The notes: generated by a model not told the origin, from the sequence alone. Counted from the stretch's first letter, positions 940 to 35,721 are shown. The stretch is DNA of 54,743 bases from Acidobacteriaceae bacterium (GCA_025357215.1 JANXPR010000473.1:1-54743), one strand, 5' to 3'. Numbers and translations: made by a program.

Positions 940-2733
940 GTGCCTATGCGTCTGAATACCGTGCGTCCAAGACTTCGCAGTTTTCTGGCCCTTGGGTTGG
1001 CGATGATCGCCATGTCGGCCGTCGGACAAAACTCCTCCGCCGCGCCGGAGCAGCAGCCACTACCAAAGTTCCGCGCCGCCTCCCGCCTGGTAGTCGTGGA
1101 TGTAATCACCACGGACCCCAAAGGCAAGCCGATCACCGCTCTTAAGAAAGAAGACTTCGTCCTTTTGGAAGACGGCAAGCCGCAGCAGATCAAAGTCTTT
1201 GGTTTCCAATCACCGCAGCCGCCGCCGGACGCAGCAACCACGTCGCAGCCGGCAGCCACCACGTCTGCTGTGCCAAAACTTCCGGAGCACGTGTTTACCA
1301 ATGTCCCCACATATAAATCCACCGGAGCGTTGAACGTGATCCTGATGGATTGGCTCAACACGCCGAACCTGAACCAGACAGACGCCCGGCTCAGGCTGAT
1401 CAAGGTGCTGGACCAGATGCCCGCGGGACGTCCCGTGGCCATCTACCTGCTTGGTTCGCGTCTTCGCCTGATACAGGATTTCACCAGCGATCAGGATGTA
1501 CTCCGCCAGGTTGTGGCCGGCATCAACAGCAAGAATTCGCCAAACCTGCCGAACCCGGTCAGCGACGCCACCGCCTCCATCATCCCTTCGCAGATTGCGC
1601 AGTACATCCCTGCAGCGAACCTGCAAAAGATCATTCAGTTTGAATCCCGTAACCAGGCAGCGCAAATCAATGACCGGGTGCAGCGCACTTTGCAAGGCAT
1701 GAATGAATTGACCCAGACCTTGGCCGCTTACCCGGGACGCAAGAACCTGATTTGGATTTCAGAGGCTTTTCCCTTGCAGTCAGCCCTGATCAGCGACGTC
1801 AATTTCGAAAACCGGGATACTGCCAGCGACTTCCGCGTGGAGGTCGCGCGCGTGGCGGATCGTTTGATGAGTTCGCAGATTGCCGTGTACCCGATTGACG
1901 TCCGCGGACTCACCGCCGTCTCTGATCTGTTCCAGATCGGCAATGACGGGCATGACGAGTACGGCCGCCCTTTGCGCGGCGACAACTTGCTGCACAACGA
2001 ACAGAAGCTCTCAGAAAACCTGAGCAACGCGCACGGCACCATGGACGACCTTGCCGACCAGACCGGCGGCCACGCCTATTACAACACCTCGGACTTTGGC
2101 AAAGTGATACTGGCCAGCATGGAAGACGGCTCCACCTACTACACACTCGGCTACTATCCTGACAACAAGAACTGGGACGGAAAATTCCGCAAGCTGCAAA
2201 TCAAGTCCACGTACCATGGCGCGAAGTTGCGCTACCGGCTGGGCTATTTTGCGTCCAGCCCCATGGCGTACCAGACGGAATCTGACCGGCAACGCGCCAT
2301 TGATCTCGGCAAGGCAATTGATCTGGCGTCGCCCGCATCAACATCTTTATTGTTTCAGGCGCAGGTGTTACCGCCGTCCGCGCAAACCCAAAACAAAATC
2401 CGCGTCAGTTTTGCCATTGATCCCCATGGCGTTTCATTTGATTTGGCGAATGACGATCTTTACCACGCCGACTTGAGCTGTGTTGTCCAGGTTTTTTCGG
2501 ATAAAGGAGATGCCTTGCACGCGGAGAGCTTTACCGTAACGACCGGCTTGAAACCGCCAGATTACGACCACGTAATGAAGACGTATGTGCCTTGCCGTTT
2601 GAATTTCGTTTTGCCGCCAGGAGATTATCCGTTGCGGCTCGCTGTGCGTGATGAACACACCGGCGCTATTGGAACCGCTAACGCGCGGGTGACAGTTACC
2701 GCCGATACGGCCACGGCCGCGCAGCCGCATTAA
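940..2733 (+). CDS. VWFA-related secreted protein (acidobacterial VWFA-domain family, TIGR03436-like)
   Basis: 597-aa ORF with a signal peptide (LALGLAMIAMSAVGQ). The N-terminal motif FRAASRLVVVDVITTDPKGKPITALKKEDFVLLEDGKPQQI is typical of this family. SD AAGGAAGG lies upstream of GTG 940 (ATG 946 is an alternative start). Confidence 0.8.
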   Translation: MPMRLNTVRPRLRSFLALGLAMIAMSAVGQNSSAAPEQQPLPKFRAASRLVVVDVITTDPKGKPITALKKEDFVLLEDGKPQQIKVFGFQSPQPPPDAATTSQPAATTSAVPKLPEHVFTNVPTYKSTGALNVILMDWLNTPNLNQTDARLRLIKVLDQMPAGRPVAIYLLGSRLRLIQDFTSDQDVLRQVVAGINSKNSPNLPNPVSDATASIIPSQIAQYIPAANLQKIIQFESRNQAAQINDRVQRTLQGMNELTQTLAAYPGRKNLIWISEAFPLQSALISDVNFENRDTASDFRVEVARVADRLMSSQIAVYPIDVRGLTAVSDLFQIGNDGHDEYGRPLRGDNLLHNEQKLSENLSNAHGTMDDLADQTGGHAYYNTSDFGKVILASMEDGSTYYTLGYYPDNKNWDGKFRKLQIKSTYHGAKLRYRLGYFASSPMAYQTESDRQRAIDLGKAIDLASPASTSLLFQAQVLPPSAQTQNKIRVSFAIDPHGVSFDLANDDLYHADLSCVVQVFSDKGDALHAESFTVTTGLKPPDYDHVMKTYVPCRLNFVLPPGDYPLRLAVRDEHTGAIGTANARVTVTADTATAAQPH

Positions 2734-2770
2734 ACTCTACGGGCGCGACTTGCTGGCGCAGCAGTAACTT

Positions 2771-3514
2771 TTAGTTTTCCGCAGGCTCGGGCTGGGCCTC
2801 AAAGATTTCTTCCACGTCTGTGGCGAACCACTGGCGCGGCTCCAGGCGATACCGCAACAGGGTCCACATGGCGGCAACGCCGTCCGTCCAGCGAATTTTC
2901 TTCCCGCCTTTTGCGGTCCGTGGAAAATAAGAAATTGGCACTTCCCAGATCTTTTCGCCGATCCGGCTCATCTTTGCCGTGACTTCAGGACAGAACTCAA
3001 AACGCTGGCACGTCAGTTGGACGCGGTCCAGTGTCGAACGCCGGAAAACCTTGTAGCAGGTGGCTTCGTCCTGAATGTTGCAGCCGTAAAGAAAATTCGC
3101 CAGGTGGGTAAGAAACTTTGCGCCGGTGTAATAAAAAAAACCGCGCTCCGGACGGTCGGGCCGTACGCCATAAACCACATTGGTCAGGCGTTGGCGCAAA
3201 GGTTCCAGTAGTGCCTCGTAATCCTGGGGATCGTATTCCAGATCAGCGTCCTGGATCAGCACGTATTCTCCGCGCGCCTGTTGCAGTCCGGAAAGAATCG
3301 CCGCTCCCTTGCCGCGGTTGTTCGCATGCAAGACCAACTGGATGTCAAATTCTTTTTGGTATTGGGCCAGGAGTTCGCGCGTTCCGTCGGTCGATCCATC
3401 GTCCACCACAATAATTTCCTTCAGGGTGGCCACGGCATTCACCTGGCGGAGCAGTTCGGCAATGGACTTGACTTCGTTAAAAACCGGAATGATGACGGAG
3501 ACATAGCCACGCAT
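2771..3514 (-). CDS. Family 2 glycosyltransferase (polyprenol-phosphate sugar transferase-like)
   Basis: GT2 signatures VSVIIPVFNE, VVDDGSTDGT and a DxD-like IQDADLEYDP. 247 aa. Confidence 0.85.
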   Translation of the reverse strand: MRGYVSVIIPVFNEVKSIAELLRQVNAVATLKEIIVVDDGSTDGTRELLAQYQKEFDIQLVLHANNRGKGAAILSGLQQARGEYVLIQDADLEYDPQDYEALLEPLRQRLTNVVYGVRPDRPERGFFYYTGAKFLTHLANFLYGCNIQDEATCYKVFRRSTLDRVQLTCQRFEFCPEVTAKMSRIGEKIWEVPISYFPRTAKGGKKIRWTDGVAAMWTLLRYRLEPRQWFATDVEEIFEAQPEPAEN

Positions 3515-3628
3515 ATCCGAAGTTGGTTTTGATTCGAAGGGTGTGAGTTCTTCAGCAATCAGAGTACTACCCGCAAAGTTATGAATGTGAACCCCTTATG
3601 AAATTCTGAATTTGATAAGATTTATTAG

Positions 3629-5209
3629 ATGCGGAGTCTAACACGCGCCGCCGTATGGAAGCCTGTTTTTTTGCTCGTGGCGCTCTCCGCGGCAGTGCCA
3701 TTGGTACATGGCTACCATCTGGGCGTAGAGGACCAGGCCATCTACCTTCCGGGCATTGAACAGAAGATCCACCCCAATCTTTTTGCCGCCGACGCTGAAC
3801 TTTTTCTTCCGCAAACACGGCCCACACTTCTGGTTCCGCTCGTCGCCTGGTCCGTTCGCACGACTGGTATGCCACTCGATGTCACCGTCTTTATCTGGCA
3901 CTTTCTGTCCATCTTTGCGCTGCTCTTTGCGGCCTGGCGGCTTGCCTGCCGTTGCTTTGCCCTGGAAGAAGCACGCTGGTGTGCCGTTGCTTTGCTCGCC
4001 GCGCTGTTCACCATGCCGGTGGCCGGGACGTCGATTTTTATCGTGGATACCTATCTTCATCCTCGCACCCTCGCGACGGCCCTGATTCTCTTGGCCATAG
4101 TGGACGTGCTGGACAGCGCAGTACTGGGCTTCAAAAAGTTAGACCGTCACATCGCACGCGCTATCCTGTGGATTGGGCTTGCTGCCACGATTCATATCCA
4201 GATGGCTCTCTACGGATTTCTGCTCTCCTTATTCTTAGGATGGAAACCAGGGCGGAAAGCAATGGCCCGAGTTGGCGATGGCGAACCGCCATCAGCCCCG
4301 GGAGCCACGACACAATCGACGACTATGGCTGCCGCATTTCCCTTACAGAGTCTTTTCCAGCCAGGGTCTGAAGCATGGAAAGAAGCTGCACGCACACGCT
4401 TCCAGCACTATTTATTGAATTGGGAATGGTATGAGTGGCTCGGCGCCATCGCCCCGCTGCTGTTCTTCTGGTGGTTCGTGAAGCTGGCCCGCCGCTCTGG
4501 ACTGGAGATGGTCGATTTAATTAGCCAGCGCGTCGCCGCGTTCCAGGTCTTCAGTATCGTATCCGCGCTCGTCCTAACGCTACCGCCGCAGTTTGAAAGA
4601 CTCACCCCATTTCAACCGATGCGCGCTCTCCATTTGGCCACGCTGATCTTCGTCCTGTTGGCTGGAGGCTTCATCGGACAATTCCTTCTGCGCCGCAGCG
4701 CGATCCGCTGGGCCCTGCTTTTCGCACCTCTGTGCGCGACGATGTTTTACGTTCAGCGGCAGATCTTCCCGGCTAGTGAGCACATTGAATTTCCGGGCCG
4801 AGCTTCACACAATCCATCTTCCCGCAATCCGTGTTCCCACAACCAATGGGTACAGGCTTTTCTGTGGGCAAAAAACAATACACCGGAAAATGCTTATTTC
4901 GCCCTGGATACCCACTACGTGGAGTTACCAGGCAACGACCAGCACGGCTTTCGCGCTTTCAGCCAACGCTCCATGATGGCTGACTGGAACAAGGATGGCG
5001 GCGTGGTCACGTTGTTCCCGGCCATCGCCGAACGCTGGCAACGCGAAACGCATGCGCGCGCGAATTGGAAGAATTTTTCTTCTGCTGACTTCCAGCATTT
5101 GCACGAACAATTCGGCGTGGGCTGGGTTGTTTTGGAAAAACCGATGAAGGTGGCGCTGAACTGTCCGTATGAAAATGCGCAAGTAGCAGTGTGCAAGGTT
5201 GCTGAGTAG
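3629..5209 (+). CDS. Polytopic membrane protein of unknown function (possibly GT-C-like), divergent from the GT2 gene
   Basis: 526-aa ORF with many hydrophobic helices in the first ~370 aa and a soluble C-terminal part. I recognised no motif. Confidence 0.6.
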   Translation: MRSLTRAAVWKPVFLLVALSAAVPLVHGYHLGVEDQAIYLPGIEQKIHPNLFAADAELFLPQTRPTLLVPLVAWSVRTTGMPLDVTVFIWHFLSIFALLFAAWRLACRCFALEEARWCAVALLAALFTMPVAGTSIFIVDTYLHPRTLATALILLAIVDVLDSAVLGFKKLDRHIARAILWIGLAATIHIQMALYGFLLSLFLGWKPGRKAMARVGDGEPPSAPGATTQSTTMAAAFPLQSLFQPGSEAWKEAARTRFQHYLLNWEWYEWLGAIAPLLFFWWFVKLARRSGLEMVDLISQRVAAFQVFSIVSALVLTLPPQFERLTPFQPMRALHLATLIFVLLAGGFIGQFLLRRSAIRWALLFAPLCATMFYVQRQIFPASEHIEFPGRASHNPSSRNPCSHNQWVQAFLWAKNNTPENAYFALDTHYVELPGNDQHGFRAFSQRSMMADWNKDGGVVTLFPAIAERWQRETHARANWKNFSSADFQHLHEQFGVGWVVLEKPMKVALNCPYENAQVAVCKVAE

Positions 5210-5231
5210 CGCACGGCGAATAGCGCGAAGC

Positions 5232-6572
5232 TTACTTGCGAACTGTCCGGGCCTTTACCACATAGGCGTCCAGTGTTCGCGCCAGCGATTCCGGCGCCTC
5301 CACTTCCAGTTGCACGTCATCGTCGCGATAGGCGCGTTTAAGAATGTGTGTGCGGGCTTCAATCTGCGCCAGCAGCTTGCCTTCACTCTGTGGAATGCGC
5401 AGCTTCATGGGGCGCAACGCGTCAATCTCCATGCGCTCATCGATGGCCGCCAGCAGGTCGTCCAGGCCCAGATGCCGCGCTGCCGAAATGTATACAGCCG
5501 AAGCCGTACTCTTCAACGACCGCCGTTGCGCTTCCGGCATCAGGTCAATCTTGTTCATCACGCGGATTTGCGGCGTGTTCTGGACTTCCAGGTCTTTCAA
5601 AACTTTCTCCACTTGCTGTTGCTGTTCCTGCGCCACCGGACTGGTCACGTCCCCCACGTGCAGCAGCAGCGCCGCGCGCTGGACTTCTTCCAAAGTGGCG
5701 CGGAAAGCCGTCACCAGTGTGGTGGGCAGACTGCGGATGAAACCTACCGTGTCCGATAGCAGCACTTTGCGTTTGCTGGGCAGAGTGATGCCGCGAATGG
5801 TTGGATCGAGCGTGGCAAACATTCGTGACGACGCAACTACGCCTGCGTCCGTGAGCGCGTTGAATAAAGTCGACTTGCCTGCGTTGGTGTAGCCGACCAG
5901 CGCCACTACCGGCAACGGCACGGCTTCTCTGCGCTGGCGCTGTTGCGCGCGCACGCGTCGAACTTCTTCTACCTGGAGTTTAATGTGCCGTATCCGCCGG
6001 TGAATTTTACGGCGGTCAGTCTCCAACTGCGTTTCACCTGGACCGCGCGTGCCGATGCCGCCGCCGAGCTGTGACATTTCAATGCCGCGCCCGGCCAGAC
6101 GAGGCAGCATGTATTCAAGTTGCGCCAACTCCACTTGCAACTGGCCTTCTCGGCTGCGCGCATGGCGCGCAAATATATCCAGGATCAACTGCGTGCGGTC
6201 AATCACCCTCGCCTGGACTTCATTTTCAATGTTGCGTTGTTGCGATGGCGTGAGTTCGTGATCGATCATCACCAGATCGGCTTCTGACGAAGCCACCGCC
6301 CCGGCAATTTCCTGCAATTTGCCAATGCCCAGCAGGGTTGCGGGATCAGGCCGGTCGCGGCGTTGAATGAATTCGCCCACAATTTCCGCGCCGGCCGAAG
6401 CCGCCAGTTCACGGAATTCGTCGAGCGAATCTTCCACGGACGTGCGCAGCATTCCTTCGCCGGCCGGGCCAGCAGTTTGCGGCACGACCTTTCGGCGGTC
6501 TGACTGTTTGGATGGATCGATTGGACCGGATTCGTCGGGTACGGAGCCTTTGCGCGCCGCTTCCCGCGCCAT
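5232..6572 (-). CDS. hflX: GTPase HflX (minimum ORF; the true start is probably upstream at ATT 6716, see findings)
   Basis: G1 motif [15 protein letters not shown], HflX N-domain [14 protein letters not shown]...[16 protein letters not shown], and a position directly downstream of hfq. Confidence 0.93.
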
Positions 6573-6719
6573 AATGGCGCCGGGCGGCAGGTCCAGATCG
6601 CGGTCGCTCCGCGAGCGATGGCGGAACTCTACCCCAACCAGAAACGCGCGTTCCGGCCGGTCACGGCCCGTACTGATGCCGGCCGTTTCACGAAAACGGG
6701 AACGCTGCCCAGGAATGGA

Positions 6720-6998
6720 TTACCCCTCTACTTTGGCGGGCGCGCTTTCCACATCGCCATGGTGTCCGCGGCCTTCATGGTGTGTGCTGCCCTTGGACAT
6801 CACCACCGTTGAGATGGCATGTTTGAAAATAAGCTGTTCCTGATTATTGGTTTCCAGGACTACCGAGTACTTATCAAACGACCGTATACGCCCGGTGAGT
6901 TTGACCCCGCTCAGCAGATAGATCGTGACCTGCGTCTTATCCTTCCGCGCAGTGTTTAAGAAGGAGTCCTGTATATTCTGTGCCGGCTTGTTTTCCAT
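6720..6998 (-). CDS. hfq: RNA chaperone Hfq
   Basis: Sm motifs [40 protein letters not shown]...[12 protein letters not shown], plus a His/Gly-rich C-terminal tail. Confidence 0.97.
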
Positions 6999-7175
6999 TT
7001 GCCGATCGTTCTCCTGTTAAGTCTTCTTCTACCCGAAACTGGGGGAACAGCTAGTTCGTCGCATTTTACATCTACCTTACATTGTAGCTTTTCAAGGCCT
7101 TCCGGGCAAAAGCCGCCCCGAATACCCAATGCCGCCCCAGCCGCCCTAAATGCTAGAATTTAGCTTACATCCTTC

Positions 7176-8339
7176 ATGAAAACTGTAGGCCAAAAGTTTG
7201 TGGAAGTGCCCATGCTGGACCTCTCGCGCCAATACACCGGGCTGCGGGACGAGTTTCTAGCCGCCATCACCCGTGTGTGCGATTCGCAACAGTACATTCT
7301 GGGCGAAGAAGTAAAAGTTTTTGAGCGCGAATTCGCCGCTCTCTGCGGGACCGCCGACTCCATTGCCTGCGCCTCCGGCACGGACGCCCTCTGGCTGGCC
7401 ATGGCCGCCGCCAACATCGGCCCCGGCGATTCGGTTATCACCACGCCCTTCAGTTTTTTTGCCACCGCCAGTTCCATCCTGCGCGCGGGCGCCCGTCCGG
7501 TGTTCGTGGACATTGACCCGGAAACCCTGAATATTGACGCCGCAAAAATCGAACAGACATTGCGCTCCGGCCCCAAACGTCACGGCATCATGCCTGTCCA
7601 TCTTTACGGCCAGTGCGCGGACATGGACGCCATCGGCAACCTCGCCGCCGAATTCAAACTCCATATCATTGAAGACGCGGCGCAGGCTTCCGGTGCCACA
7701 TGGAACGGCAAGCCCGCCGGCGCTTTGGGTACGGCCGCCGCATTCAGCTTCTATCCGACAAAAAACTTGAGCGCGTTTGGCGATGCCGGAGTGCTTACCA
7801 CCAGTGATCCCGCGCTGGCCGAACACGCACGCTCTTTGCGCAACCACGGAGCCAAGCAGCGTTACTATCACGATGAGATCGGCGCCAACAGCCGCATGGA
7901 TTCCATTCAAGCCGCGGTGCTGCGCGTGAAGATGCGTCACCTGCAAAGCTGGAATAACGCCCGCCGCAGCCACGCCAAGCTTTACGATCAATTGATCGCT
8001 ACCGCCGGACTAACCCGCACCGGCGCGAACTCCGCGGCGCCCGTCGTATTGCTCAAGACGCGTCCGCAGGCGCACCATATCTATCATCAATATGTTATCC
8101 GTGTTCAACAGCGCGAAAAGCTGCGTGACTTCCTGAAAGAACGCGGCGTGGGATCTGAAATCTACTACCCTGTGCCGCTGCATTTGCAGAAATGTTTTGG
8201 CTATCTCGGCCACGTGAAAGGCGATCTGCCGGAATCAGAGCTGGCCGCCGCGGAAGTACTTGCGTTGCCCATGTTCGCCGAACTTACGGAACCCGAGCAG
8301 CGGCATGTGGTGGAATCGATCGCGGAGTTTTACTCCTAG
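7176..8339 (+). CDS. DegT/DnrJ/EryC1/StrS-family PLP aminotransferase (sugar aminotransferase)
   Basis: Family-typical sequence across 387 aa, for example DALWLAMAAANIGPGDSVITTPFSFFATA, IIEDAAQASGA and FSFYPTKNLSAFGDAG (Lys in YPTKNL). Confidence 0.92.
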   Translation: MKTVGQKFVEVPMLDLSRQYTGLRDEFLAAITRVCDSQQYILGEEVKVFEREFAALCGTADSIACASGTDALWLAMAAANIGPGDSVITTPFSFFATASSILRAGARPVFVDIDPETLNIDAAKIEQTLRSGPKRHGIMPVHLYGQCADMDAIGNLAAEFKLHIIEDAAQASGATWNGKPAGALGTAAAFSFYPTKNLSAFGDAGVLTTSDPALAEHARSLRNHGAKQRYYHDEIGANSRMDSIQAAVLRVKMRHLQSWNNARRSHAKLYDQLIATAGLTRTGANSAAPVVLLKTRPQAHHIYHQYVIRVQQREKLRDFLKERGVGSEIYYPVPLHLQKCFGYLGHVKGDLPESELAAAEVLALPMFAELTEPEQRHVVESIAEFYS

Positions 8340-8475
8340 ACTCAGACCTCAACCGACTCCGAACGACAGCGGACCAAGGTTAACGGGCTGGTCCCTCCAC
8401 AAATGCCGCACTCCATTGCAGGCTGCCGAAAAACCCTTTGCGCAGCGAGTCCTATCAGGGCACAAGTCTTACCCG

Positions 8476-8540
8476 GATTGTCATCAACCGCGATGATTGT
8501 TATCAATCGTCCGGATTATCATCAACCGCCCGGATTGTCT
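8476..8540. repeat. Tandem 19-bp repeat, 3 full units plus a partial fourth
   Basis: Units start exactly 19 bp apart at 8476, 8495, 8514 and 8533: GATTGTCATCAACCGCGAT, GATTGTTATCAATCGTCCG, GATTATCATCAACCGCCCG, GATTGTC.... Confidence 0.8.
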
Positions 8541-9117
8541 CGCCTGAAGCCGGCCAGGTCTGTACCTATCCTGATTTGTCAAAGATCATTCGTTCCGCGC
8601 TCTGAAGCGCTTTCGCATTGTATCGTATTATGTTCGCTATCGCAACTCTGGCTGCCGGCGGTGATTACTCCCGGATGGCGCAGTCGAGAAGCAGAATCGC
8701 CCATCATTGAACATGCACGATGCCCGTGTCGGGGTCGGCATCGCGGATGAGCTGACGGATATAACAGCATGGCAGGGGAGACCTTGTCGGGATCTCTCCA
8801 CTCCTTTTCAGTCGCAAGGCTCCTTCGTCGTCGGTCGAGATGACAAGGGTCCGGGTGCGTGGTGACAACGGTTGGGGGTGTCCTGCTGGCGGCTGAAGCG
8901 GCACACAGCAAAGGACGCAGAGAAAGGGGTTTGGTGGAAGAGCGGCCATTGATGGCCGCGTAAAGAGTCTTAAACTTGGGCTTTAGCCTTGGTGGGCTCG
9001 AATCTCACTCTTTCGCAAATAGCGCGAAGAGATACGGCACCCGGCTCTGTCTTGCGACCTTCTTGCCCAGGCCTTCACTGCGCTATACAACGTATAATTA
9101 TCGCGAGGATTAAGTAA

Positions 9118-26322: not shown

Positions 26323-27510
26323 ATGGAACGCCCCCGTATCTCTATTTTTGACACCACGTTACGTGATGGAGAACAGGCCCCCGGTTGCAGCATGGGAATC
26401 CGCGAGAAGTCCCGCATGGCCTTCCAACTGGAAAACCTGGGCGTGGACATTATTGAAGCCGGGTTCCCGGCCGCCGCCGACGCCGACTTTGAAGCCGTGC
26501 GAGTGATCTCCGGACAGCTACGCAGCCCGATCATCGCTGGACTGGCCCGCGCCTCCGAGCCGGACATTCTCCGCGCATGGACGTCGCTGGAAAATGCCAG
26601 GCGCCCGCGCATCCATGTGTTTCTGGCGAGTTCTGATCTGCATTTGACATGCAAGCTGCGCATCACGCGCGAACAAGCGCTGGACCAGGTCTACAAAGCG
26701 GTTTCTTACGCGCGCACATTGTGCAATGACGTGGAGTTTTCGCCGGAAGACGCATCACGCTCAGACGTTTATTTCCTTTGCCGCTTTGTGCAGGCCGCCG
26801 TGGACGCCGGCGCCACTGTCATCAACATCCCGGACACGGTGGGCTACACGCTGCCGCAGGAATTTTCCGAGCTCATTCAGATGGTCCGGAAATCAGTCCA
26901 TGGAATCGAGAAAGTAACGATCTCCGCGCACTGCCACAATGATCTTGGACTGGCCGTGGCCAACACGCTGGCTGCCATACAGGCCGGAGCCCGGCAGGTG
27001 GAATGCACGATCAACGGCATTGGCGAGCGCGCAGGTAACGCGTCTTTGGAAGAGATCATCATGGCGCTCAACGTCCGCCAGGAAAAGCTGCCGTATGAAA
27101 CCGGCATCGATACGCGGGAAATCTACCCCACCAGCCGATTGCTGGCCGAACTGATCGGCTTTGAGCCGCAACCGAATAAAGCCATCGTCGGACGGAACGC
27201 GTTCGCGCATGAAGCTGGCATCCACCAGCACGGCGTGATCAGCAATCCACTGTGCTACGAGATCATGACGCCGCAATCGGTCGGCGTGCCCGGCAACAAC
27301 CTGGTACTGGGCAAACATTCTGGACGCCACGCGCTGGGCAAACGTCTGGCGGAACTGGGCCATGCAGTTTCGCGCGACGATCTGGACGGCGTCTACAAAC
27401 GGTTCATGAAACTGGCAGAAATGAAGAAGAACATCTACGACCAGGATTTGATTTCCTTGCTGCCCTCCGCGGCGCGGCAATCTGTCGCGGTACAACAGGC
27501 GACGAACTAG
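26323..27510 (+). CDS. leuA: 2-isopropylmalate synthase/homocitrate synthase-family enzyme, short form without the C-terminal LeuA regulatory domain
   Basis: [30 protein letters not shown] and HEAGIHQHG. At 395 aa it is shorter than canonical LeuA. SD GGGAGGAAA precedes the start. Confidence 0.8.
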
Positions 27511-27555
27511 CATTTTTGAAACAGACTTTTTGGCGAAGTAGCTGTTAAGAGGTAT

Positions 27556-28692
27556 GTGGGACCCATGCGTATCAAGATGAAGATCACCATGCTTCCGGGC
27601 GACGGTGTTGGGCCAGAAGTTTGCCGCGAAGCCGTGCGAGTGCTCAAGACACTCAACCACTATTACGATTGCGATTTTCAGTTCGATGAAAAACCGATTG
27701 GCGGCGCGGCCATCCGCGAACATGATAATCCGCTGCCGGACGCCACACTGCAAGCTTGCCTGAAGAGTGACGCGGTTTTCCTGGGCGCCGTTGGCGCGCC
27801 GGAATTTGATCATCTATCGAGCCAGCTGCGTCCGGAAGCTGGGCTTCTTCGTTTGCGGACCGCGCTCGGCGGATTTGCTAATTTGCGTCCAGCCATCAGC
27901 TATCCGGCGATTGCCGATTGCTCGCCGTTGCGTGAATCGCGCGTGAAAGGCGCGGACGTACTTACCGTCCGCGAACTGCTGGGCGGCATGTACTTCTCTG
28001 AACCCCGTGGTTTCGGTCCAGACAAAGAATCCGCGTTCAATACCATGCGCTATTCCATCCCGGAGATTGAGCGCGTGGCGCGCGTGGCGTTTGATCTGGC
28101 GCGCACCCGCCGCAAGAAAGTCACGTCCGTGGACAAAGCCAATGTGCTGGAAACGTCCCAGCTGTGGCGTAACACGGTAAACGCCGTGGCCCAGAAATAT
28201 CCAGACGTAAAGCTCGATCACATGTACGTAGACGCTTGCGCCATGCACCTGATCACCACGCCCACGCGCTTTGATGTGCTGCTCACGGAAAATCTTTTTG
28301 GCGACATTTTGTCGGACGAATCCGCGGCCATCACCGGATCGCTGGGCACGCTGGGGTCGGCCACCATCGGGGGTAAGGTGAATCTATACGAGCCGGTCCA
28401 CGGATCGGCGCCGGACATCGCGGGCAAAGGCATTGCTAATCCGCTGGGCGCCATTGCTTCCGCCGCCATGTTGTTGCGCCACTCCGCTGACATGCCGCAG
28501 GAAGCTGACGACCTGGAAGAGGCCATCAATGACGTACTGGAAGCCGGACATCGCACAGCGGACCTGATTGAACCAATAAAGACCGCACTAGCCGCTAAGC
28601 GCCATCTGGCCAGTACCAGTGAAATGGGTAAGCAGGTGGAACGCGCGTTTGCCGCCCGGCTGGACGGACGCTTTGCCTACCATGCTGTATAG
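27556..28692 (+). CDS. leuB: 3-isopropylmalate dehydrogenase
   Basis: [20 protein letters not shown] and [14 protein letters not shown]. The start is ambiguous (GTG 27556, ATG 27565 or ATG 27577). Confidence 0.93.
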
Positions 28693-28734
28693 TCTTGCGA
28701 AAATACTTCTAAGCGCGGAGAGATTCGAGAACTG

Positions 28735-30141
28735 ATGCCGGCACGCACGCTGTTTGAAAAAATCTGGGACAATCACACCGTCTGCGCCGGGCCGGAAGGC
28801 TCCACCATCCTTTATATCGATCTGCACCTGGTGCATGAGGTCACGTCTCCGCAGGCCTTTGAGGGTCTGCGCATCGCCGAACGTAAAGTTCGCCGCACAG
28901 ACCGCACCTTTGCCACGCTCGATCACAACATTCCCACGATCGGCAACCGTATGGTGATCGACGATCCCCTGGCGCGCGGACAAGTGGAAGCCCTGCGGCA
29001 TAATTGCCGTGAATTTGGTGTTCCGCTGTTTGATCTGGAAGCGCCGGAGCAAGGCATCGTCCACGTGATTGGCCCGGAATTGGGACTGACGCAGCCGGGC
29101 GCGACAATTGTTTGCGGTGACAGCCATACCAGCACGCACGGAGCTTTCGGTGCATTGGCTTTCGGCATCGGCACATCAGAAGTCGAACATGTGTTGGCCA
29201 CGCAGTGTCTGGTCCTGAAAAAAGCCAAAACCATGCTGGTGAACTTTACCGGCCAGCTTTCTCCAGGCGTCACATCAAAGGACGTGATCCTGGCATTGAT
29301 CGCGCAGATAGGAACCGATGGCGCCACCGGACACGTGATCGAATACTCGGGCGAAGCCATTCGCGCTCTCTCCATGGAAGCGCGCATGACCATCTGCAAC
29401 ATGAGTATTGAAGCTGGAGCGCGCGCCGGCATGATTGCCGCCGACCAGATCACGTTCAACTATTTGCGCGGACGCCGTTACGCGCCCAAAGCCTGGGGAG
29501 AAGCTGAGGCCCACTGGAAGACGCTACACAGCGATCCCGGGGCAAAGTTCGACACCACGATTGAGATTGACGCCACGCGCATCGCGCCTTTTGTCACCTG
29601 GGGAACGAATCCGGGTATGGCCGCGCCGGTGACCGGTGTTGTCCCAGATCCGGACCGCGCCGCCAACGAGTCCGAACGCAACGGCATCCGGCGAGCTCTT
29701 GAATACATGGACCTGCGTCCGGGAATGCGGCTGGAAGAAATTCCCGTGGACCGCGTGTTCATTGGCTCGTGTACCAACGCGCGGCTTGAAGATCTGCGCG
29801 CGGCGGCGCAGGTGATCAAGGGTTACAAAATTTCTAAAGGGATCCAGGCCATGGTAGTGCCCGGCTCGCAGCAGGTCAAACGCGCGGCGGAGCAGGAAGG
29901 TTTGCACACGATCTTTCGCGACGCGGGCTTTGAGTGGCGCGAAGCGGGGTGCTCCATGTGCCTGGGTATGAATGCTGACCGCTTGCAACCGGGTGAGCGG
30001 TGCGCTTCCACCAGCAACCGGAACTTTGAAGGCCGCCAGGGCGCCGGCGGACGCACACACCTGATGAGTCCGGCGATGGCGGCAGCGGCGGCGGTGTCCG
30101 GGCACTTTGTGGACATACGAAAGTGGCAATACAAGACTTAG
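28735..30141 (+). CDS. leuC: 3-isopropylmalate dehydratase large subunit
   Basis: Aconitase-family motifs [48 protein letters not shown], and CSMCLG...NRNFEGRQG. Confidence 0.95.
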
Positions 30142-30205
30142 CCGTCCAGTGCGTATAGACCATAGTCATATCGATGTGGTCACAGAACAAAGTTAGGACC
30201 AATAA

Positions 30206-30793
30206 ATGCAGAGTTTCACCGTACATACCGGACTGGTCGCACCACTGGAACGCGAAAATGTGGACACCGATCAGATCATCCCCAAACAGTTTCTCAAGCG
30301 CACGGAGCGCACCGGCTACGGCGAATGCTTGTTCTTCGATTGGCGCTTTGACGCGGCGGGCAGACCCAACCCGGCGTTCCCGCTGAACGCTCTGCAATAT
30401 ACCGGCGCAAGCATTCTGCTGACAGGGAAAAACTTTGGCTGCGGATCGTCGCGCGAACACGCCGTGTGGGCGCTGCGCGATTACGGATTCCGCGCGGTGA
30501 TTGCTCCCAGCTTCGCGGACATCTTTTCCAGCAACTGCGTAAAGAACGGCCTGTTAACAGTCGCCCTGAAACCGGAGGAGATCAATACTTTGATGGCGCG
30601 GGCTTCCGCCGATCGCCTGAACCTGAAAGTTGATCTGGAAAAATGCGAAGTCTCAACCGCCGATGGTTTCACCGCGAAGTTTACGGTTGAGCCGTTTCGA
30701 CGCATGTGCCTGTTGGAAGGCATGGACGAAATTGGCATGACGCTGAAACACGATGCGGAGATTTCGGCGTACGAGCGAAGGCAAAGGGTTTAG
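30206..30793 (+). CDS. leuD: 3-isopropylmalate dehydratase small subunit
   Basis: NVDTDQIIPKQFLK and GKNFGCGSSREHAVWAL. Confidence 0.95.
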   Translation: MQSFTVHTGLVAPLERENVDTDQIIPKQFLKRTERTGYGECLFFDWRFDAAGRPNPAFPLNALQYTGASILLTGKNFGCGSSREHAVWALRDYGFRAVIAPSFADIFSSNCVKNGLLTVALKPEEINTLMARASADRLNLKVDLEKCEVSTADGFTAKFTVEPFRRMCLLEGMDEIGMTLKHDAEISAYERRQRV

Positions 30794-30907: not shown

Positions 30908-32254
30908 TTATTGCGGGATCACCGGCGTCACCACTCCTGTGCTGGTATCGCCCGTCATGCCCAGCGCCTGAATAGGCGCATTGCCAGAAGTCACGGTCAT
31001 TCGCACCTTGACAGCACCCGCCGGGACTGGACCTGGGAACCAATCGGCTAGCACGTCACGCGTGATCTTCTTGCCAGCAGTTCCGCCAGCGGCAATACCC
31101 GGCAAGATAAAGTTGACTGGAGTTCCCACCGTAGCATTGCTGGCGTTCAGCAGCTCAATCTTGATCCCATCGTCAACTGCCGACGTATTCTGCAAAGAGA
31201 ATCCCGTAAATGTGGTGCCGCCTGTCACCAGTGGAATGGTCGCCGTGAGATACGTCGTCTTGGACGCATACATGGGATGCACCTGCGCCACCAGCGTATT
31301 GGAACTGGCTGGCAGAACATCGTCCCCGCGGAGGTAGCTGTAGTAGTCAATCTGGGTGGTGGGATTGTTGGTGGTGTCGCGCACGCGGATGCGTTCGCCA
31401 TCCAGTTGGAAAACCGGGCCGCCACCCGGGCAGGTTGCCGGAGCCGGTGTAGGCAGCACACCGTTGCATATCTTCACGTCAACTTCCGTGGCGCTGATCA
31501 ACGTGATGTCCACCGGCAGAATATTGGTGTCTTCAATCGCCACGCGCGTGTTGGCCGTGAATCCGCTGCCGAAAATCTTAATAAGAGTACGGTCCGGCAA
31601 AGAACCGCCCGCCGGCACTACGTCAGTGACATAGGGCGTACCGACACCGCCGATGGTCAAAAAGCCAGGACCGGTCGGCGGAAAGAGTGTGTACGGTGCT
31701 TGCGAGGCGTCGAAGAAAGAGGAATTGGCTAGGTCGAAATTGGCGAAAAACTGCTGTCCTTGCGCTCCGCTGATCACAGGCATCGAAAGGGTCAACAACG
31801 GGTAGGCGGTGGTGTTTCCCAGAGTGGAGCCCAGATTCGGTCCAACGAGCTGCACGGAAATATTCGTACCATTGATCACCGCGATGCCTGCGGCCAGTCC
31901 AGCGGGATCATTGAGCGCCGCGCCGCGTACCGGGCCTACCGGTCCGGCAGGAACCTGGGGACGTGTGCTGCCGTGGCCAATCGGTTTGGGTTCGGTGGTG
32001 GAAAGCTGGTATTGATAAATACCACCGACAGGAACCGTGCTATCCAGGACTTTGAATTCGATCGCGCCAGAAGGCAACGGCGTTGGAGTGGGCACGGGTG
32101 TAGGAACAGGTGTAGGCGTGGGAGTTGGCGTTGGCGTGGAACCGACGGCGCCACCTGATCCGCCGCAACCGGCAAGCGCCAGCACAGCGGATAGCACCAC
32201 GACAGAAAGACACGTTCTCCAGGCAAGCTGGGGTTGGCCTGCGCGACTAGCCAT
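30908..32254 (-). CDS. Lipoprotein with Pro/Thr linker and IPT/TIG-like Ig-fold region
   Basis: Lipobox LALAGCGG, linker PTPTPTPTPVPTPVPTPTP, and an IPT/TIG-like segment LIKIFGSGFTANTRVAIED. Confidence 0.6.
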   Translation of the reverse strand: MASRAGQPQLAWRTCLSVVVLSAVLALAGCGGSGGAVGSTPTPTPTPTPVPTPVPTPTPLPSGAIEFKVLDSTVPVGGIYQYQLSTTEPKPIGHGSTRPQVPAGPVGPVRGAALNDPAGLAAGIAVINGTNISVQLVGPNLGSTLGNTTAYPLLTLSMPVISGAQGQQFFANFDLANSSFFDASQAPYTLFPPTGPGFLTIGGVGTPYVTDVVPAGGSLPDRTLIKIFGSGFTANTRVAIEDTNILPVDITLISATEVDVKICNGVLPTPAPATCPGGGPVFQLDGERIRVRDTTNNPTTQIDYYSYLRGDDVLPASSNTLVAQVHPMYASKTTYLTATIPLVTGGTTFTGFSLQNTSAVDDGIKIELLNASNATVGTPVNFILPGIAAGGTAGKKITRDVLADWFPGPVPAGAVKVRMTVTSGNAPIQALGMTGDTSTGVVTPVIPQ

Positions 32255-32548
32255 GGGGAAAACTCCTTGTCACCCGGTACTTTCTAATGTTTTGGGGTTG
32301 CAGTCCAGGCGGAACTCTAAACAAAAGCCTCAAGAGTCCTCATCACTATAGTGGCTTCCTGGCCTCCGAAAAATATAAGACCCATGCCCAGGGCTACCGG
32401 GTTTCCTGGAGGATGAGTGTCTCGCCGTTACTAACGTAAAAGCATATTTATCAATAGGTTGGATGCATCTCCATGGTCTCGCGATTCGTGCCTTTCGCGG
32501 CAATTTCACAATTTCTGCACTGCAACGTTCTGTTAACCTGTAAAAGCG

Positions 32549-34120
32549 ATGGGCGAACCCACCTACCTTCTTTCTGTGCCCGGCTACAAACCCGGCAAAA
32601 AAGCCTTGCTGGTCTTTTTTGAGACCGACTGCCCCACCTGTCAACTGGCGTTGCCTTACCTTAATTCACTCGACTCGAACGCCGTGCAGGTACTTGGCCT
32701 CTCTCAAGATGATGAGACACACACCCGGGCCTTTGTGGAACAACTAAATCTCAAATACCCGGTCAACGTGGACCGCGGCCTGAAGCTGACGCGGGAGTTC
32801 GACCCGCAATCCGTACCCACCATGTACCTGCTGGATGAAAGCGGTCACGTGCAAAGTAGTCTGATCGGGCTGGACAAAGCGGCCATGAACACAATGGCTG
32901 CGGCCCTGGGACAGAAGACCATTGCTCCTCTCGACGACGGGACGCCGGCCTGGAAACCAGGATGCGGTTCGCGGCATTTGGAACCCGCGACTCAGGATGG
33001 ACACAGCGGCGCCGGAGATGTAAGCGAGGAATCCGCGAACGGTCCGCTGCTGCGGCGCATCGCCGAACCCGCCAGCCGGATCACGCTGCGTGACGACGAA
33101 GATCCGTTCGAATACTGCATACAGAAATTTGGTGACGCGCTACCAGTCATCCCACCGACGGAAGCAAAAGTCTCTGCGATGGTGACGGCATCCGGACTCG
33201 CGGCGGAAAACGTGATAGCCCGCGTGCCTCCCGTATACGGCGAAGCTACAGTAGAAAAGATTGCCGCCAACGCTGTGATGGCCGGCTGCACACCGGAGAT
33301 GATGCGCGTCCTGCTGCCGCTGGTACGGGCTGTTTGCGACGAAAACTTTAACGCCCACGGCGTCCAGGCCACCACGCATTTCGCCGCGCCCATCATCATC
33401 ATCAACGGGCCGGTTCGGCAGGAATTGGGATTTTGGTGCAAGCAAAACGTCTTCAGCAACGTGGCCCGCGCTAACAGCACAGTTGGCCGCGCGCTACAGT
33501 TGATCCTGCTGAACCTGGGCGGCGGGCGTCCGGATGGCATTGATATGTCGGCGCTGGGCAACTCCGCGAAATTTTCCTGCTGCATTGCGGAAAACGAAGA
33601 AGAAAACCCCTGGGAACCGTTTCACGTGGACCGCGGATTGCAACGCGACCAAAGCGCGCTTAGCCTGTTTGCCGCGGAGCCTCCGCGCGGCGTGAGTGAA
33701 CATACCGCCCAAAAAGGCGCTGTGGTGCTCAAAGCAGTTTGCCAGGCGCTGGCCACGGTATGGAGCTACCGCATCTGCATGAACCACGAAGCGATTGTTG
33801 TGTTGTGTCCGGAACACGCCAAGACGCTGGCGCGCGACGGCTTCACCAAACAACAAGTCCGGCAATTTCTTTTTGAAAATACCGGCGTGCCCAAGCGGCT
33901 CTACGCGGAAAAAGATACCGGCGAAGGCACGCAACTCGTCCCTTACTATCGCGAGATCATGATTCAGGGCGAGCCTTGTTACCAGAAATTCCGCTCGGCT
34001 GAATCGATTCACATCGTGGTCACCGGCGGGACGGCAGGAAAGTTTTCCGCTGTGCTGGGCAGCTGGGCTGTTGGACCAACAGGCAGTCAACTCGTCACAT
34101 ATCCAATTTCACCGAAGTAA
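32549..34120 (+). CDS. Fusion protein: N-terminal thioredoxin-fold (TlpA/redoxin-like, CPTC) domain plus ~380-aa uncharacterised Cys-rich C-terminal domain
   Basis: The N-terminal part reads KALLVFFETDCPTCQLALPYLNSL...VPTMYLLDESG. The C-terminal part has VEKIAANAVMAGCTPEMM, NAHGVQATTHFAAPIIIINGP and KFSCCIAENEE, and I recognised no family. Confidence 0.75.
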   Translation: MGEPTYLLSVPGYKPGKKALLVFFETDCPTCQLALPYLNSLDSNAVQVLGLSQDDETHTRAFVEQLNLKYPVNVDRGLKLTREFDPQSVPTMYLLDESGHVQSSLIGLDKAAMNTMAAALGQKTIAPLDDGTPAWKPGCGSRHLEPATQDGHSGAGDVSEESANGPLLRRIAEPASRITLRDDEDPFEYCIQKFGDALPVIPPTEAKVSAMVTASGLAAENVIARVPPVYGEATVEKIAANAVMAGCTPEMMRVLLPLVRAVCDENFNAHGVQATTHFAAPIIIINGPVRQELGFWCKQNVFSNVARANSTVGRALQLILLNLGGGRPDGIDMSALGNSAKFSCCIAENEEENPWEPFHVDRGLQRDQSALSLFAAEPPRGVSEHTAQKGAVVLKAVCQALATVWSYRICMNHEAIVVLCPEHAKTLARDGFTKQQVRQFLFENTGVPKRLYAEKDTGEGTQLVPYYREIMIQGEPCYQKFRSAESIHIVVTGGTAGKFSAVLGSWAVGPTGSQLVTYPISPK

Positions 34121-34146
34121 AGAAACAGGAAAGTAGAGGTTGACTT

Positions 34147-34677
34147 ATGCCGATCACTCTTGTTCATCCGGGTAACGAAAAAGTGGCCACCGCAGCCGCG
34201 CCGCCACCGCGACTTAGCACGCTGAGCGGAAAAAAAATCGGCCTGCTGGACATCAGCAAGCCGGGTGGCAGCCACTTCCTTGATCGCATGGAACAACTGT
34301 TGCGCCAAACTTACGGCGCTGCGGACGTTGTCCGCGTAAAGAAGCCCACATATACCAAGAATGCTCCGCAAGCGGTCATTGATCAGTTGCGTGGCATGGA
34401 CGCAGTCATCGAAGGTTTGGCCGATTGAGGATCGTGCACAACGTGCAGTTTGCACGATACGGTCCGCCTAGAGAATCTTGGAATACCCGCTGTAGCCGTC
34501 GCGACCACGGAATTCATGGCGCCCGCGCGAATTCAAGCTGGAGCGCTGGGACGTCCGGGCTTTGACGCTATTTACGTTCAACATCCGATCCAGGACCAGA
34601 CGCTGGAGCAGATTGCCGCGCGCGCGGATGCCGTGGCTGCGGAGATCGTGAAGCGACTAACCACAGCCGGGAAGTGA
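34147..34677 (+). CDS. UGSC-family selenoprotein (TGA 34426-34428 read as selenocysteine; 176 aa)
   Basis: Track ORFs 34147..34428 and 34450..34677 are in the same frame with no other stop between them. The joined sequence is ...DAVIEGLAD-U-GSCTTCSLHDTVRLENLGIPAVAVATTEF.... A hairpin follows the TGA directly. Confidence 0.8.
34431..34458 (+). promoter_or_regulatory. Bacterial SECIS-like stem-loop
   Basis: AUCGUGCA-C-AAC[GUGCA]GUU-UGCACGAU: an 8-bp stem, a bulged C, a 3-bp stem and a 5-nt apical loop beginning GU. It starts 2 nt after the UGA codon (at 34431). Confidence 0.65.
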
Positions 34678-34751
34678 CAAAAGTTTCAGCCCAGTGGCTG
34701 ACAACCATGTTTTACCGCCAGGTTCTGGGTAGAATTGAGCCATCAGGAAAG

Positions 34752-34785
34752 CCCGCTGCACGGCAAGCAGCGGGTCTTCCGTTTA
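34752..34785 (+). terminator. Weak terminator-like hairpin after the selenoprotein gene
   Basis: CCCGCTGC-acggcaa-GCAGCGGG followed by TCTTCCGTTT. The U-tract is poor. Confidence 0.3.
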
Positions 34786-34848
34786 ATGAGAACCAGTTTT
34801 TTGCGAGCGCCGCAGTCTTTTTAAAAGCGGAAAGGACCAACCAACGCG

Positions 34849-35721
34849 ATGACTTCCACTTCTGCTTCCTCCGGCACCAAGACCCAAACCCAGACCGCGG
34901 CAACATCCGCGAAAAAGAAAATCGCGGTGCTGGGTTGCGGCAAGATGGGCACCATTTTGCTCCAGGGATTTTTGCAACACGGTCTGATCGCCAAAGGCGA
35001 AGCCGTGGCCACGGTGCAGCATGAAGAACATCGCCGCGAACTTTCGCGCGAGCTGGGCGGGGTGACCGTAACGACCGACAACCGCGCGGCCGTCCACGGA
35101 GCGCCGACCGTCCTGCTGGGCGTGAAGCCGCAAGCGTTGCCCGCATTGCTGGAAGAGATCACGCCAGAGCTTGCGCCGGACACGCTGATCATTTCGATTG
35201 CCGCGTCCACCACGACGGGATTCATTCAGGAAAAAATCGGCAAAGATGCGCATGTAGTCCGTGCCATGCCCAACACTCCGGCCATGGTCGGCGCGGCGAT
35301 GACCGCGTTGTGTGCCGGACGCTCCGTCCGCAAAGAACATTTGGAAACCGTGAAGAAGCTGTTTGAAAGCGTGGGCCGCGCGGTGATCGTTGACGAAAAA
35401 CACATGGACGCCATTACGGCGCTTTCCGGCAGCGGTCCGGCGTTCGCGTTTGTGATACTGGAATCCATGGCCGAAGCCGGTGTAAGTGTGGGACTGCCGC
35501 GCGAACTGGCGACAACTCTTGCCGCGCAGACTTTGTTTGGCGCGTCCAAGCTGGCGCTGGAAACCGGACACCATCCTGCGCTGCTCAAAGACGCTGTAAC
35601 CACGCCCGCTGGATGCACCATTGAAGGCCTGATCGAGCTGGAAAAAGGCGGCCTGCGTGTGACACTGATGAACGCCATCATCAAGACGACGATTCGGGCC
35701 AGGGAGTTGATGAACAGCTAA
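34849..35721 (+). CDS. proC: Pyrroline-5-carboxylate reductase
   Basis: KIAVLGCGKMGTILLQG, RAMPNTPAMVG, ALSGSGPAFAF and TTPAGCTIEGL. Confidence 0.93.
   Translation: MTSTSASSGTKTQTQTAATSAKKKIAVLGCGKMGTILLQGFLQHGLIAKGEAVATVQHEEHRRELSRELGGVTVTTDNRAAVHGAPTVLLGVKPQALPALLEEITPELAPDTLIISIAASTTTGFIQEKIGKDAHVVRAMPNTPAMVGAAMTALCAGRSVRKEHLETVKKLFESVGRAVIVDEKHMDAITALSGSGPAFAFVILESMAEAGVSVGLPRELATTLAAQTLFGASKLALETGHHPALLKDAVTTPAGCTIEGLIELEKGGLRVTLMNAIIKTTIRARELMNS

Follow-up and report, generated by a model that had tools for sequence, protein, structure and literature searches.

A near-obligate pairing of UGSC selenoproteins with an undescribed, often thioredoxin-fused domain: a probable thiol/selenol reductase

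What chemistry is carried out by a small selenoprotein that is encoded directly behind a thioredoxin-fold protein whose larger part resembles no known family? The question is raised by two adjacent genes on the forward strand of a 54,743-nucleotide stretch of DNA from an Acidobacteriaceae bacterium (GCA_025357215.1, JANXPR010000473.1:1-54743; below, "the window" means this whole stretch). The first gene (32549–34120) is an open reading frame (ORF) for a 523-residue protein, in which a thioredoxin-fold domain is followed by a linker and by a domain of about 335 residues, and the second (34147–34677) encodes a 176-residue selenoprotein of the UGSC family. UGSC was introduced in 2007 as a selenoprotein of unknown function (PMC1976440), and a review of 2026 places it among the selenoproteins whose biological functions are largely uncharacterised (PMC13188914). 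From the computational analysis reported here we consider it probable that the products of both genes make up a single thioredoxin-driven thiol/selenol reductase, following a logic like that of protein B of glycine or proline reductase but with an unrelated substrate subunit.

The evidence that carries this reading is, in the first place, the association of the two families across genomes. A profile of the large domain, run against a single genome of each species, yielded 80 loci from Acidobacteriota, Binatia, Methylomirabilota, Chloroflexota, Alpha-, Beta- and Gammaproteobacteria, Actinomycetota, Spirochaetota, Myxococcota and Poribacteria, to which the window and two loci of a close homologue were added, giving 83. 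In 72 of these 83 loci, all of them chosen via the domain, the domain gene has a same-strand UGSC ORF next to it, the start of which usually lies 40–200 nucleotides further 3' and which carries an in-frame TGA in nearly all cases. The reciprocal test, in which metagenome contigs were searched only with a DNA pattern of the region comprising the UGA and the selenocysteine insertion sequence (SECIS), gave 67 loci with at least 500 nucleotides upstream, and the domain is directly upstream in 61 of these, within 2.5 kb in two more and lacking in four. Likewise, the pair is present, in either order, in all six of the Pfam-annotated contigs with complete genes. Among the best 150 cluster representatives there are fusions of both orders: about 12 are full UGSC-domain fusions, with cysteine (Cys) in place of selenocysteine (Sec), at least 10 proteins start with the post-Sec half of UGSC and continue into the domain, and five carry the domain followed by the pre-Sec half at their end; the half-UGSC proteins of both orders are gene calls truncated at the UGA. 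Chance adjacency of the two families is excluded. Clearly, UGSC and the domain of about 335 residues form a near-obligate two-gene or fused module, and the conserved co-occurrence that the initial annotation had anticipated is found from either side, with or without a thioredoxin fusion. No third conserved gene was detected by clustering the neighbours over 82 loci, the next-best families occurring in at most 10.

The second gene is read through an in-frame TGA (34426–34428) to give 176 residues with A-D-U-G-S-C-T-T-C at positions 92–100, so that Sec94 is followed by Cys97 (codon 34435–34437) and Cys100 (34444–34446). Membership of the UGSC family is unambiguous, both Pfam PF24696 (E = 5e-47; 160.6 bits, cut-off 25) and NCBIfam NF041046 (E = 2.7e-42; 144.3 bits, cut-off 125) being passed. 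The in-frame TGA occupies the identical alignment column in at least 70 loci, and the Cys-type homologues have Cys at that position (DCGSC). Downstream of it a SECIS-type hairpin, CGUGCA-GUU-UGCACG, lies on the forward strand at 34442–34456 (+17 to +31 from the U of the UGA); one G and one U of its loop are invariant. Over 64 distinct sequences 98.7% of the cells of its six base pairs are paired and three of the six pairs show compensatory changes, as for example GCA/UGC to GGA/UCC, which simultaneously turns a Cys into Trp and a Leu into Ile in the protein. The observed values were never reached in 500 shuffles, and controls slid out of register collapsed. Folding of the single sequence is uninformative, since the 81 nucleotides around the UGA fold no better than shuffles (z = -0.56): it is the covariation across loci that makes the SECIS convincing. 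The second gene is, then, a genuine selenoprotein gene with predicted Sec recoding, as had been proposed at first, and family scores, conserved UGA and covarying hairpin agree on this. A search of UGSC against PDB sequences, as a single sequence and as a profile, gave no match. A metal or iron-sulfur site built from the UxxCxxC motif was considered and rejected, as the third Cys is often Trp among UGSC members and some fused forms lack the motif cysteines.

The partner carries a thioredoxin fold. Residues 1–125 of the 523-residue protein (32549–32923) form a ResA/TlpA-like domain, of which residues 15–104 match Redoxin (PF08534; 46.4 bits, cut-off 26.6), with AhpC-TSA (PF00578; 44.6 bits, cut-off 26), which overlaps the stronger Redoxin match, and Thioredoxin_8 also above their Pfam cut-offs. 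Structural comparison by Foldseek aligns this part of the AlphaFold model with ResA, StoA and DsbE (E from 5e-8 to 1e-6, target TM-score 0.6–0.7), so that sequence and structure bear out the initial assignment of the N-terminal 120 or so residues to a TlpA/redoxin-type thioredoxin fold with CPTC. The cysteines C28-P-T-C31 (codons 32630–32641) are set in F-F-E-T-D-C-P-T-C, that is, in a CxxC with Thr at -2, whereas the peroxiredoxin pattern would be Pxxx[TS]xxC without a CxxC. The equivalog cut-offs of ResA, StoA and DsbE (CcmG), extracytoplasmic reductases of cytochrome-c or spore maturation that gave the best NCBIfam matches, are missed by a wide distance (46.9, 37.5 and 24 bits against 170, 210 and 359). 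The protein begins MGEPTYLLSVPGYKPGKK and has neither a signal peptide nor a membrane anchor; because its N-terminus lacks a hydrophobic stretch and the ATG is closely preceded by an in-frame stop, it is taken to be cytoplasmic. Its close homologues number more than 5,400, mostly in Acidobacteriota, and their names are limited to "TlpA family disulfide reductase" and "peroxiredoxin" for the fused forms or to "hypothetical"; these automatic names cover the N-terminal quarter of the 523-residue protein only.

Between the two domains lies a flexible linker (residues 131–185, approximately), which has near its start the motif P-G-C-G-S (residues 137–141; 32957–32971). The cysteine of this motif, C139 (codon 32963–32965), is a conserved residue that had been overlooked: across 50 thioredoxin-fused homologues, drawn from several phyla, the pattern P..PGCGS..P is kept in no fewer than 80%. 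In the full-length model residues 143–169 are disordered, with a predicted local distance difference test score (pLDDT) below 50, and C139 sits just before this stretch.

The connection with the thioredoxin system goes beyond the window. Of the 86 domain ORFs of the surveyed loci, about 54 have an N-terminal thioredoxin fold with C-x-T-C, and these are spread across phyla; in cluster P0127 the place of the thioredoxin fold is taken by FeThRed_B, the catalytic chain of ferredoxin:thioredoxin reductase (FTR; Pfam E = 2e-21). Where the domain is not fused to thioredoxin, some annotated records of cultured organisms show genes of the same system in or beside the operon: the gene order is trxB-trxA-domain-UGSC in Arthrobacter sp. 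ERGS1:01 and domain-UGSC-trxB in Roseovarius sp. THAF8, trxB is within the operon in Variovorax sp. SRS16, and TrxB-like flavoproteins of about 300 residues with a CxxC are encoded beside the module in Haloterrigena turkmenica and Variovorax boronicumulans. A TrxB-like gene is absent from four further unfused contexts, and of the 82 genome loci only L040 has a TrxB-like ORF next to the pair, so that the trxB linkage is a trait of some unfused subfamilies and not a general one. The module is thus wired to the thioredoxin system by recurrently attached modules (thioredoxin, FTR, TrxB). These attachments lend support to the thiol/selenol relay that the initial annotation had suggested, of which the relay itself and a substrate held on the large domain are the parts that we infer.

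The large domain (residues 186–523; 33104–34117) is the least familiar component. Searches of residues 131–523, approximately, as a single sequence against Pfam, NCBIfam and PDB sequences at E≤10 gave no match, and the same was true of the domain profile against PDB sequences and of 43 domain members against Pfam at E≤10, the Gly_reductase family (GrdE/PrdA) included. Profile-profile comparison indicates that the domain is unrelated to UGSC. The domain family is a large one, for which exhaustive searching with HMMER recovered 4,499 clusters at 50% identity with E≤1e-3 and 924 with E≤1e-30 and placed the core at residues 190–520 or so of the 523-residue protein. AlphaFold2 models the structure with confidence, the full-length protein reaching a pLDDT of 88 and the domain alone a pLDDT of 91.3 and a predicted TM-score of 0.91, and the predicted secondary structure is that of a helix-rich alpha/beta protein. 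A DapF/proline-racemase-like fold with two catalytic cysteines, considered as a candidate, is ruled out by this secondary structure. When the full-length model was compared with the PDB by Foldseek, the matches (ResA, StoA, DsbE) concerned the thioredoxin part only, and the domain alone gave none at E≤1e-3; its best match had E = 2.8e-3, with TM-scores of 0.17–0.29, and the top-ranking folds, class I fumarate hydratase and Toblerone-fold amide hydrolases, were treated as not meaningful. The statement that the remaining 380 or so residues are unrecognisable is therefore upheld in all of the Pfam, NCBIfam, PDB-sequence and PDB-fold searches, and by sequence or solved fold the domain matches no characterised enzyme. 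Judging from the model, it is an undescribed family whose predicted fold is unmatched in the PDB.

In spite of its size the family retains a compact set of near-invariant residues. In an alignment of 268 sequences G246, R314 and E348 are conserved in 100%, N309 and G313 in about 100%, C247, D196 and W355 in 98%, C345 in 93% and H423 in 92%; the corresponding codons in the window are 33287–33289 for C247, 33488–33490 for R314, 33581–33583 for C345, 33590–33592 for E348 and 33815–33817 for H423. The set C247, R314, E348, N309, G313 and H423 has an enzyme-like composition and is predicted to form an active site. The initial description of the region as Cys-rich holds for two of its four motifs, AVMAGC (C247) and KFSCC (C345), whereas the cysteines of AVCDENF and FWCKQN are not conserved. 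Six proteins of about 710 residues (P0132, P0136, P0145, P0151, P0167 and P0181) carry the domain tandemly duplicated in a single polypeptide, the aligned copy having Val in place of C345 and retaining C247; this duplication hints at a domain that works as a dimer or pseudo-dimer. In several genomes, moreover, the domain occurs twice side by side, sometimes with two UGSC genes (Dehalococcoidia, L056, at 184–438, 214–1608, 2512–2991 and 3902–4933; Halostagnicola, L218, at 5941–8788; Halalkalicoccus, L210, at 4279–6978), which points to paralogous expansion of the module.

How might the parts work together? In the reductase that we propose, the new-fold domain would be the catalytic, substrate-binding subunit and would activate its substrate via C247, R314, E348, H423 and C345, while the UGSC protein would act as a small redox subunit of the selenoprotein B type (GrdB/PrdB), with Sec94 as the reactive nucleophile attacking the substrate held by the domain. 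Cys97 could then resolve Sec94 to a selenenyl-sulfide, and the tethered ResA/TlpA-like domain (C28/C31) would swing in and re-reduce the oxidised centre, possibly via C139, being itself probably recharged by the cellular NADPH-thioredoxin reductase. By analogy with glycine and D-proline reductase, we infer that the chemistry would be a reductive cleavage or reduction of a small molecule of the organic-acid or amino-acid type.

The comparison with these known reductases shows both the strength and the limits of the analogy. Against the GrdB and GrdF models, UGSC residues 68–157 align weakly with the Sec region (E = 3e-4 and 1.6e-3), and the similarity is local, around the Sec, where UGSC has the UxxCxxC arrangement U94-G-S-C97-T-T-C100; the cut-offs of the selenoprotein B family (GrdB/GrdF/GrdH/PrdB) are missed (TIGR01917, 19.8 bits against a cut-off of 602; TIGR01918, 11.6 against 65) and Pfam GRDB (PF07355) gives no match. 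GrdB also carries UxxCxxC, and its complex is reduced by thioredoxin (PMC13188914). Protein B of the glycine, sarcosine and betaine reductases (GrdB plus GrdE) thus resembles the UGSC pair in having a small UxxCxxC Sec subunit with a partner encoded alongside, and in drawing electrons from thioredoxin and thioredoxin reductase genes of the operon (PMC13188914), as is found here in some unfused members. It differs in that GrdB has about 430 residues and UGSC about 176, that the partner of UGSC is unrelated to GrdE (no Pfam Gly_reductase match, and a new fold), that no conserved equivalents of GrdA, GrdC or GrdD are found near the UGSC pair and that the hosts of the pair are mostly soil and water aerobes, haloarchaea included. 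The same two-subunit logic is seen in D-proline reductase (PrdA plus PrdB), whose Sec subunit PrdB, a small UxxC selenoprotein of about 26 kDa, is a homologue of GrdB (PMC13188914); a dithiol-dependent reductive reaction, as proposed for the UGSC pair, and occasional proline-related neighbours are further points of likeness. Unlike that enzyme, the UGSC pair has no PrdA-like sequence, no evidence of self-cleavage, no PrdC/PrdD/PrdE/PrdF context and no significant match of UGSC to a PrdB model.

With respect to its own family the second gene is a full member of PF24696/NF041046 (both cut-offs, U-G-S-C, UGA and SECIS), but the surveys that describe this family (PMC1976440, PMC2398784, PMC13188914) are silent on a near-obligate partner and on a thioredoxin link, save one sentence in the 2008 metagenome paper on a "UGSC/Unknown_1" fusion (PMC2398784), whose "Unknown_1" part may be the present domain. 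The N-terminal CxxC domain is similar to the ResA/TlpA/StoA oxidoreductases, and structurally to ResA, StoA and DsbE; it differs from these in being part of a cytoplasmic protein that scores far under the equivalog cut-offs and in having the new domain and the selenoprotein as its client. In architecture the 523-residue protein is also reminiscent of PilB, the Trx-MsrA-MsrB protein, in which a thioredoxin-fold domain is fused to the reductases that it recycles.

The surroundings of unfused members give some indication of the type of substrate. Their neighbours comprise LysR regulators, tripartite ATP-independent periplasmic (TRAP) or tripartite tricarboxylate (TTT) carboxylate transporters, CaiB/BaiF CoA-transferases and short-chain dehydrogenases/reductases, and those of further relatives include genes for a CoA-ester lyase, for AcnX with DUF126 and for enzymes of the ornithine-cyclodeaminase and dihydrodipicolinate synthase (DHDPS) families. 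These contexts point to small-molecule catabolism, and no single substrate emerges. Fused UGSC-domain proteins lie beside aconitase X and DUF126 in Vibrio europaeus (plasmid pVEu; L207, 3022–4731) and Sporomusa termitida (pSPTER; L212, 1863–3568), and beside ornithine-cyclodeaminase-family and DHDPS-family genes in Variovorax boronicumulans (L211, 1–1278). The AcnX family includes cis-3-hydroxy-L-proline dehydratase, and these three contexts hint at proline or hydroxyproline catabolism. A phosphosulfolactate synthase gene (ComA) is near the pair in two unrelated organisms, on plasmids of Natrinema zhouii (L083, 3889–4356) and of Arthrobacter sp. ERGS1:01 (L209, 3671–4459), L083 and L213 contain phosphoenolpyruvate-mutase/isocitrate-lyase family genes, and L207 contains a gene for enolase.

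Genes of the Sec machinery are also encountered. Six alphaproteobacterial loci (L057, L060, L068, L077, L079 and L081) have a same-strand selB about 130–750 nucleotides ahead of the domain gene, and in most of them selA precedes selB; this suggests that in those lineages the Sec machinery mainly serves this module. In Paracoccus ferrooxidans (L208, plasmid pFER4) selB is about 3 kb from a Sec-type pair, and DsrE, a TusA-family sulfurtransferase and a cysteine desulfurase are encoded about 2–4 kb from it (1565–3711); the UGSC gene of this locus is annotated as two "hypothetical protein" ORFs, split at the UGA.

In the window itself the two genes have the appearance of a transcription unit. The first stops 26 nucleotides before the second on the same strand, as had been stated, and in this gap (34121–34146) a consensus scan finds neither a promoter-like nor a terminator-like site, again in line with the first reading of the sequence; direct inspection shows a GAGG ribosome-binding site at 34136–34139, 7 nucleotides 5' of the ATG (34147) that opens the UGSC gene. 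A GC-rich terminator-like hairpin 3' of the latter (34751–34775, forward strand), a pattern match from the same type of scan, is likely to mark the end of the two-gene transcript. No RNA family of Rfam was recognised in 31500–35500, nor was a riboswitch in the 294-nucleotide upstream region. Further upstream a forward-strand run of four genes (26323–30793), encoding HMGL-like/homocitrate-synthase-like and isopropylmalate/isocitrate dehydrogenase-like (Iso_dh) proteins and the large and small subunits of an aconitase, is a chain-elongation cluster of the leucine or lysine type. The identical order of these four families precedes the pair in the relative L001, and in L001 and L008 the pair begins just 30 nucleotides past the aconitase small-subunit gene; in the window a 448-residue ORF on the opposite strand (30908–32254), with a lipoprotein-like N-terminus, a long (PT)n linker and no Pfam match, is inserted between that gene and the pair. 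Directly 3' of UGSC on the forward strand lies proC (34849–35721; pyrroline-5-carboxylate reductase, Pfam P5CR_dimer E = 9e-38), and a PALP enzyme is also encoded downstream. In L003, L005 and L007, all close relatives, the pair is followed by an ORF that clusters by BLAST with this proC. The position of proC may reflect plain synteny, and it deserves attention given the likeness of UGSC to the Sec subunits of proline and glycine reductases.

Several points weigh against a reductase of the kind proposed. About 10% of loci have no adjoining UGSC, two of the misses being contig ends. In several fused Cys-type members no cysteine is left in the UGSC motif while C247 and C345 are retained, so that in these lineages UGSC cannot be the redox relay. 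The similarity of UGSC to GrdB is far under the family cut-off, and the large domain has no similarity to GrdE or PrdA, the analogy with protein B being therefore functional only. Moreover, the neighbourhood of the window subfamily is a housekeeping one (leu-type genes, proC) that gives no substrate hint, and the order of thiol/selenol exchange set out above is guesswork.

The missing UGSC genes and motif cysteines just mentioned would fit a large domain that is a non-redox enzyme, such as a hydro-lyase, an isomerase or a transferase with Cys247 as nucleophile, with UGSC and thioredoxin keeping this cysteine reduced or switching the enzyme and delivering no electrons to a substrate. Such a function in redox maintenance or regulation, which we regard as unlikely, would also be in keeping with neighbours such as the dehydratase AcnX, enolase and CoA-ester lyase. 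The weak fold likeness to hydro-lyases and hydrolases (class I fumarate hydratase, Toblerone-fold amide hydrolases) goes in the same direction, but these matches are not significant (TM-score <0.3). A dedicated selenoprotein, with selA-selB adjoining it in Alphaproteobacteria, seems in addition too costly a device for mere upkeep, and the dedicated trxB/trxA genes borne by some operons suggest a stoichiometric consumption of electrons.

A general antioxidant activity, as a peroxidase or as a sulfoxide or protein-disulfide reductase comparable to the Trx-MsrA/B fusions or to peroxiredoxins, is in our view improbable. Its support is anecdotal: the N-terminal domain scores on AhpC-TSA and homologues are often automatically named "peroxiredoxin", yet the motif is a CxxC in a ResA-like fold, which is probably not a peroxiredoxin active site. 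A function as thiol oxidoreductase is assumed for most UxxC selenoproteins (PMC2398784), and the housekeeping neighbours of the window subfamily would suit a general antioxidant role; however, a 335-residue domain that comprises thousands of diverged subfamilies and yet keeps an invariant Arg, Glu, His and Asn, and operons with transporters, CoA-transferases and LysR regulators that look like small-molecule catabolism, argue otherwise.

The near-invariance of G246-C247 raises the case of a pyruvoyl enzyme, since PrdA and GrdE form their pyruvoyl group from a cysteine (PMC13188914, ref. 82): the domain would be a proenzyme self-cleaving at Gly246/Cys247, and the pair a true analogue of D-proline or glycine reductase. 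The resemblance of UGSC to the Sec region of PrdB and GrdB would fit, as would the proline-type contexts (proC in the window; AcnX with DUF126, ornithine-cyclodeaminase-family and DHDPS-family genes near relatives), but the latter are anecdotal. We judge this very improbable, as the domain has no sequence similarity to the Gly_reductase (GrdE/PrdA) family, C247 is at a confidently predicted helix-helix junction and not in a strand-turn-strand cleavage loop, and position 247 is occupied by Ala or Gly in five homologues. Finally, that the pair carries persulfide or perselenide or delivers selenium is scarcely credible: the evidence for it is anecdotal, the sulfur-trafficking genes (DsrE, TusA, cysteine desulfurase) being confined to the one locus of Paracoccus ferrooxidans, the selD-like AIRS gene and the selA/selB genes near some loci being of a kind that commonly adjoins any selenoprotein gene and the very weak HypE and SelD fold matches having a probability below 0.1, and Cys versions of the module exist in Sec-less organisms (haloarchaea, Arthrobacter, Roseovarius).

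Read as a thioredoxin-dependent selenoprotein reductase, the pair has a substantial chance of representing a new enzyme class. A still wider reading, which we put forward tentatively and as a whole, is that the pair forms the core of an unrecognised, widespread class of Sec- or Cys-dependent, thioredoxin-powered reductases with a catalytic fold new to the PDB, equivalent in aerobes to the glycine and proline reductases of clostridia; in haloarchaea and in aerobic bacteria of soil and water such enzymes might cleave bonds reductively in small substrates of the amino-acid or organic-acid type, and they might be the main reason why Caulobacterales/Hyphomonadaceae, with selA-selB directly upstream, keep a Sec machinery.

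As to what was already described, a full-text literature search for "UGSC" together with "selenoprotein" returned papers of the survey type only, with nothing on the pair beyond the fusion mentioned in 2008. The idea that the locus is an undescribed system must therefore be narrowed, as UGSC has been a listed family since 2007 and a "UGSC/Unknown_1" fusion was already noted (PMC2398784), while the remainder was not found in the literature searched. What appear to be new are the near-obligate two-gene or fused module, its wiring to thioredoxin, FTR and TrxB, the linker cysteine and a partner without a PDB relative. The partner family, with about 4,500 clusters, has no entry in the copies of Pfam and NCBIfam searched and no structural relative in the PDB, and is therefore a target for the discovery of structure and function. 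For UGSC, until now an orphan, the gain of a near-obligate partner and of a candidate electron source turns it into part of a defined enzyme that can be reconstituted, for which the trxB-trxA-domain-UGSC operon of Arthrobacter offers an all-cysteine version, expressible in E. coli.

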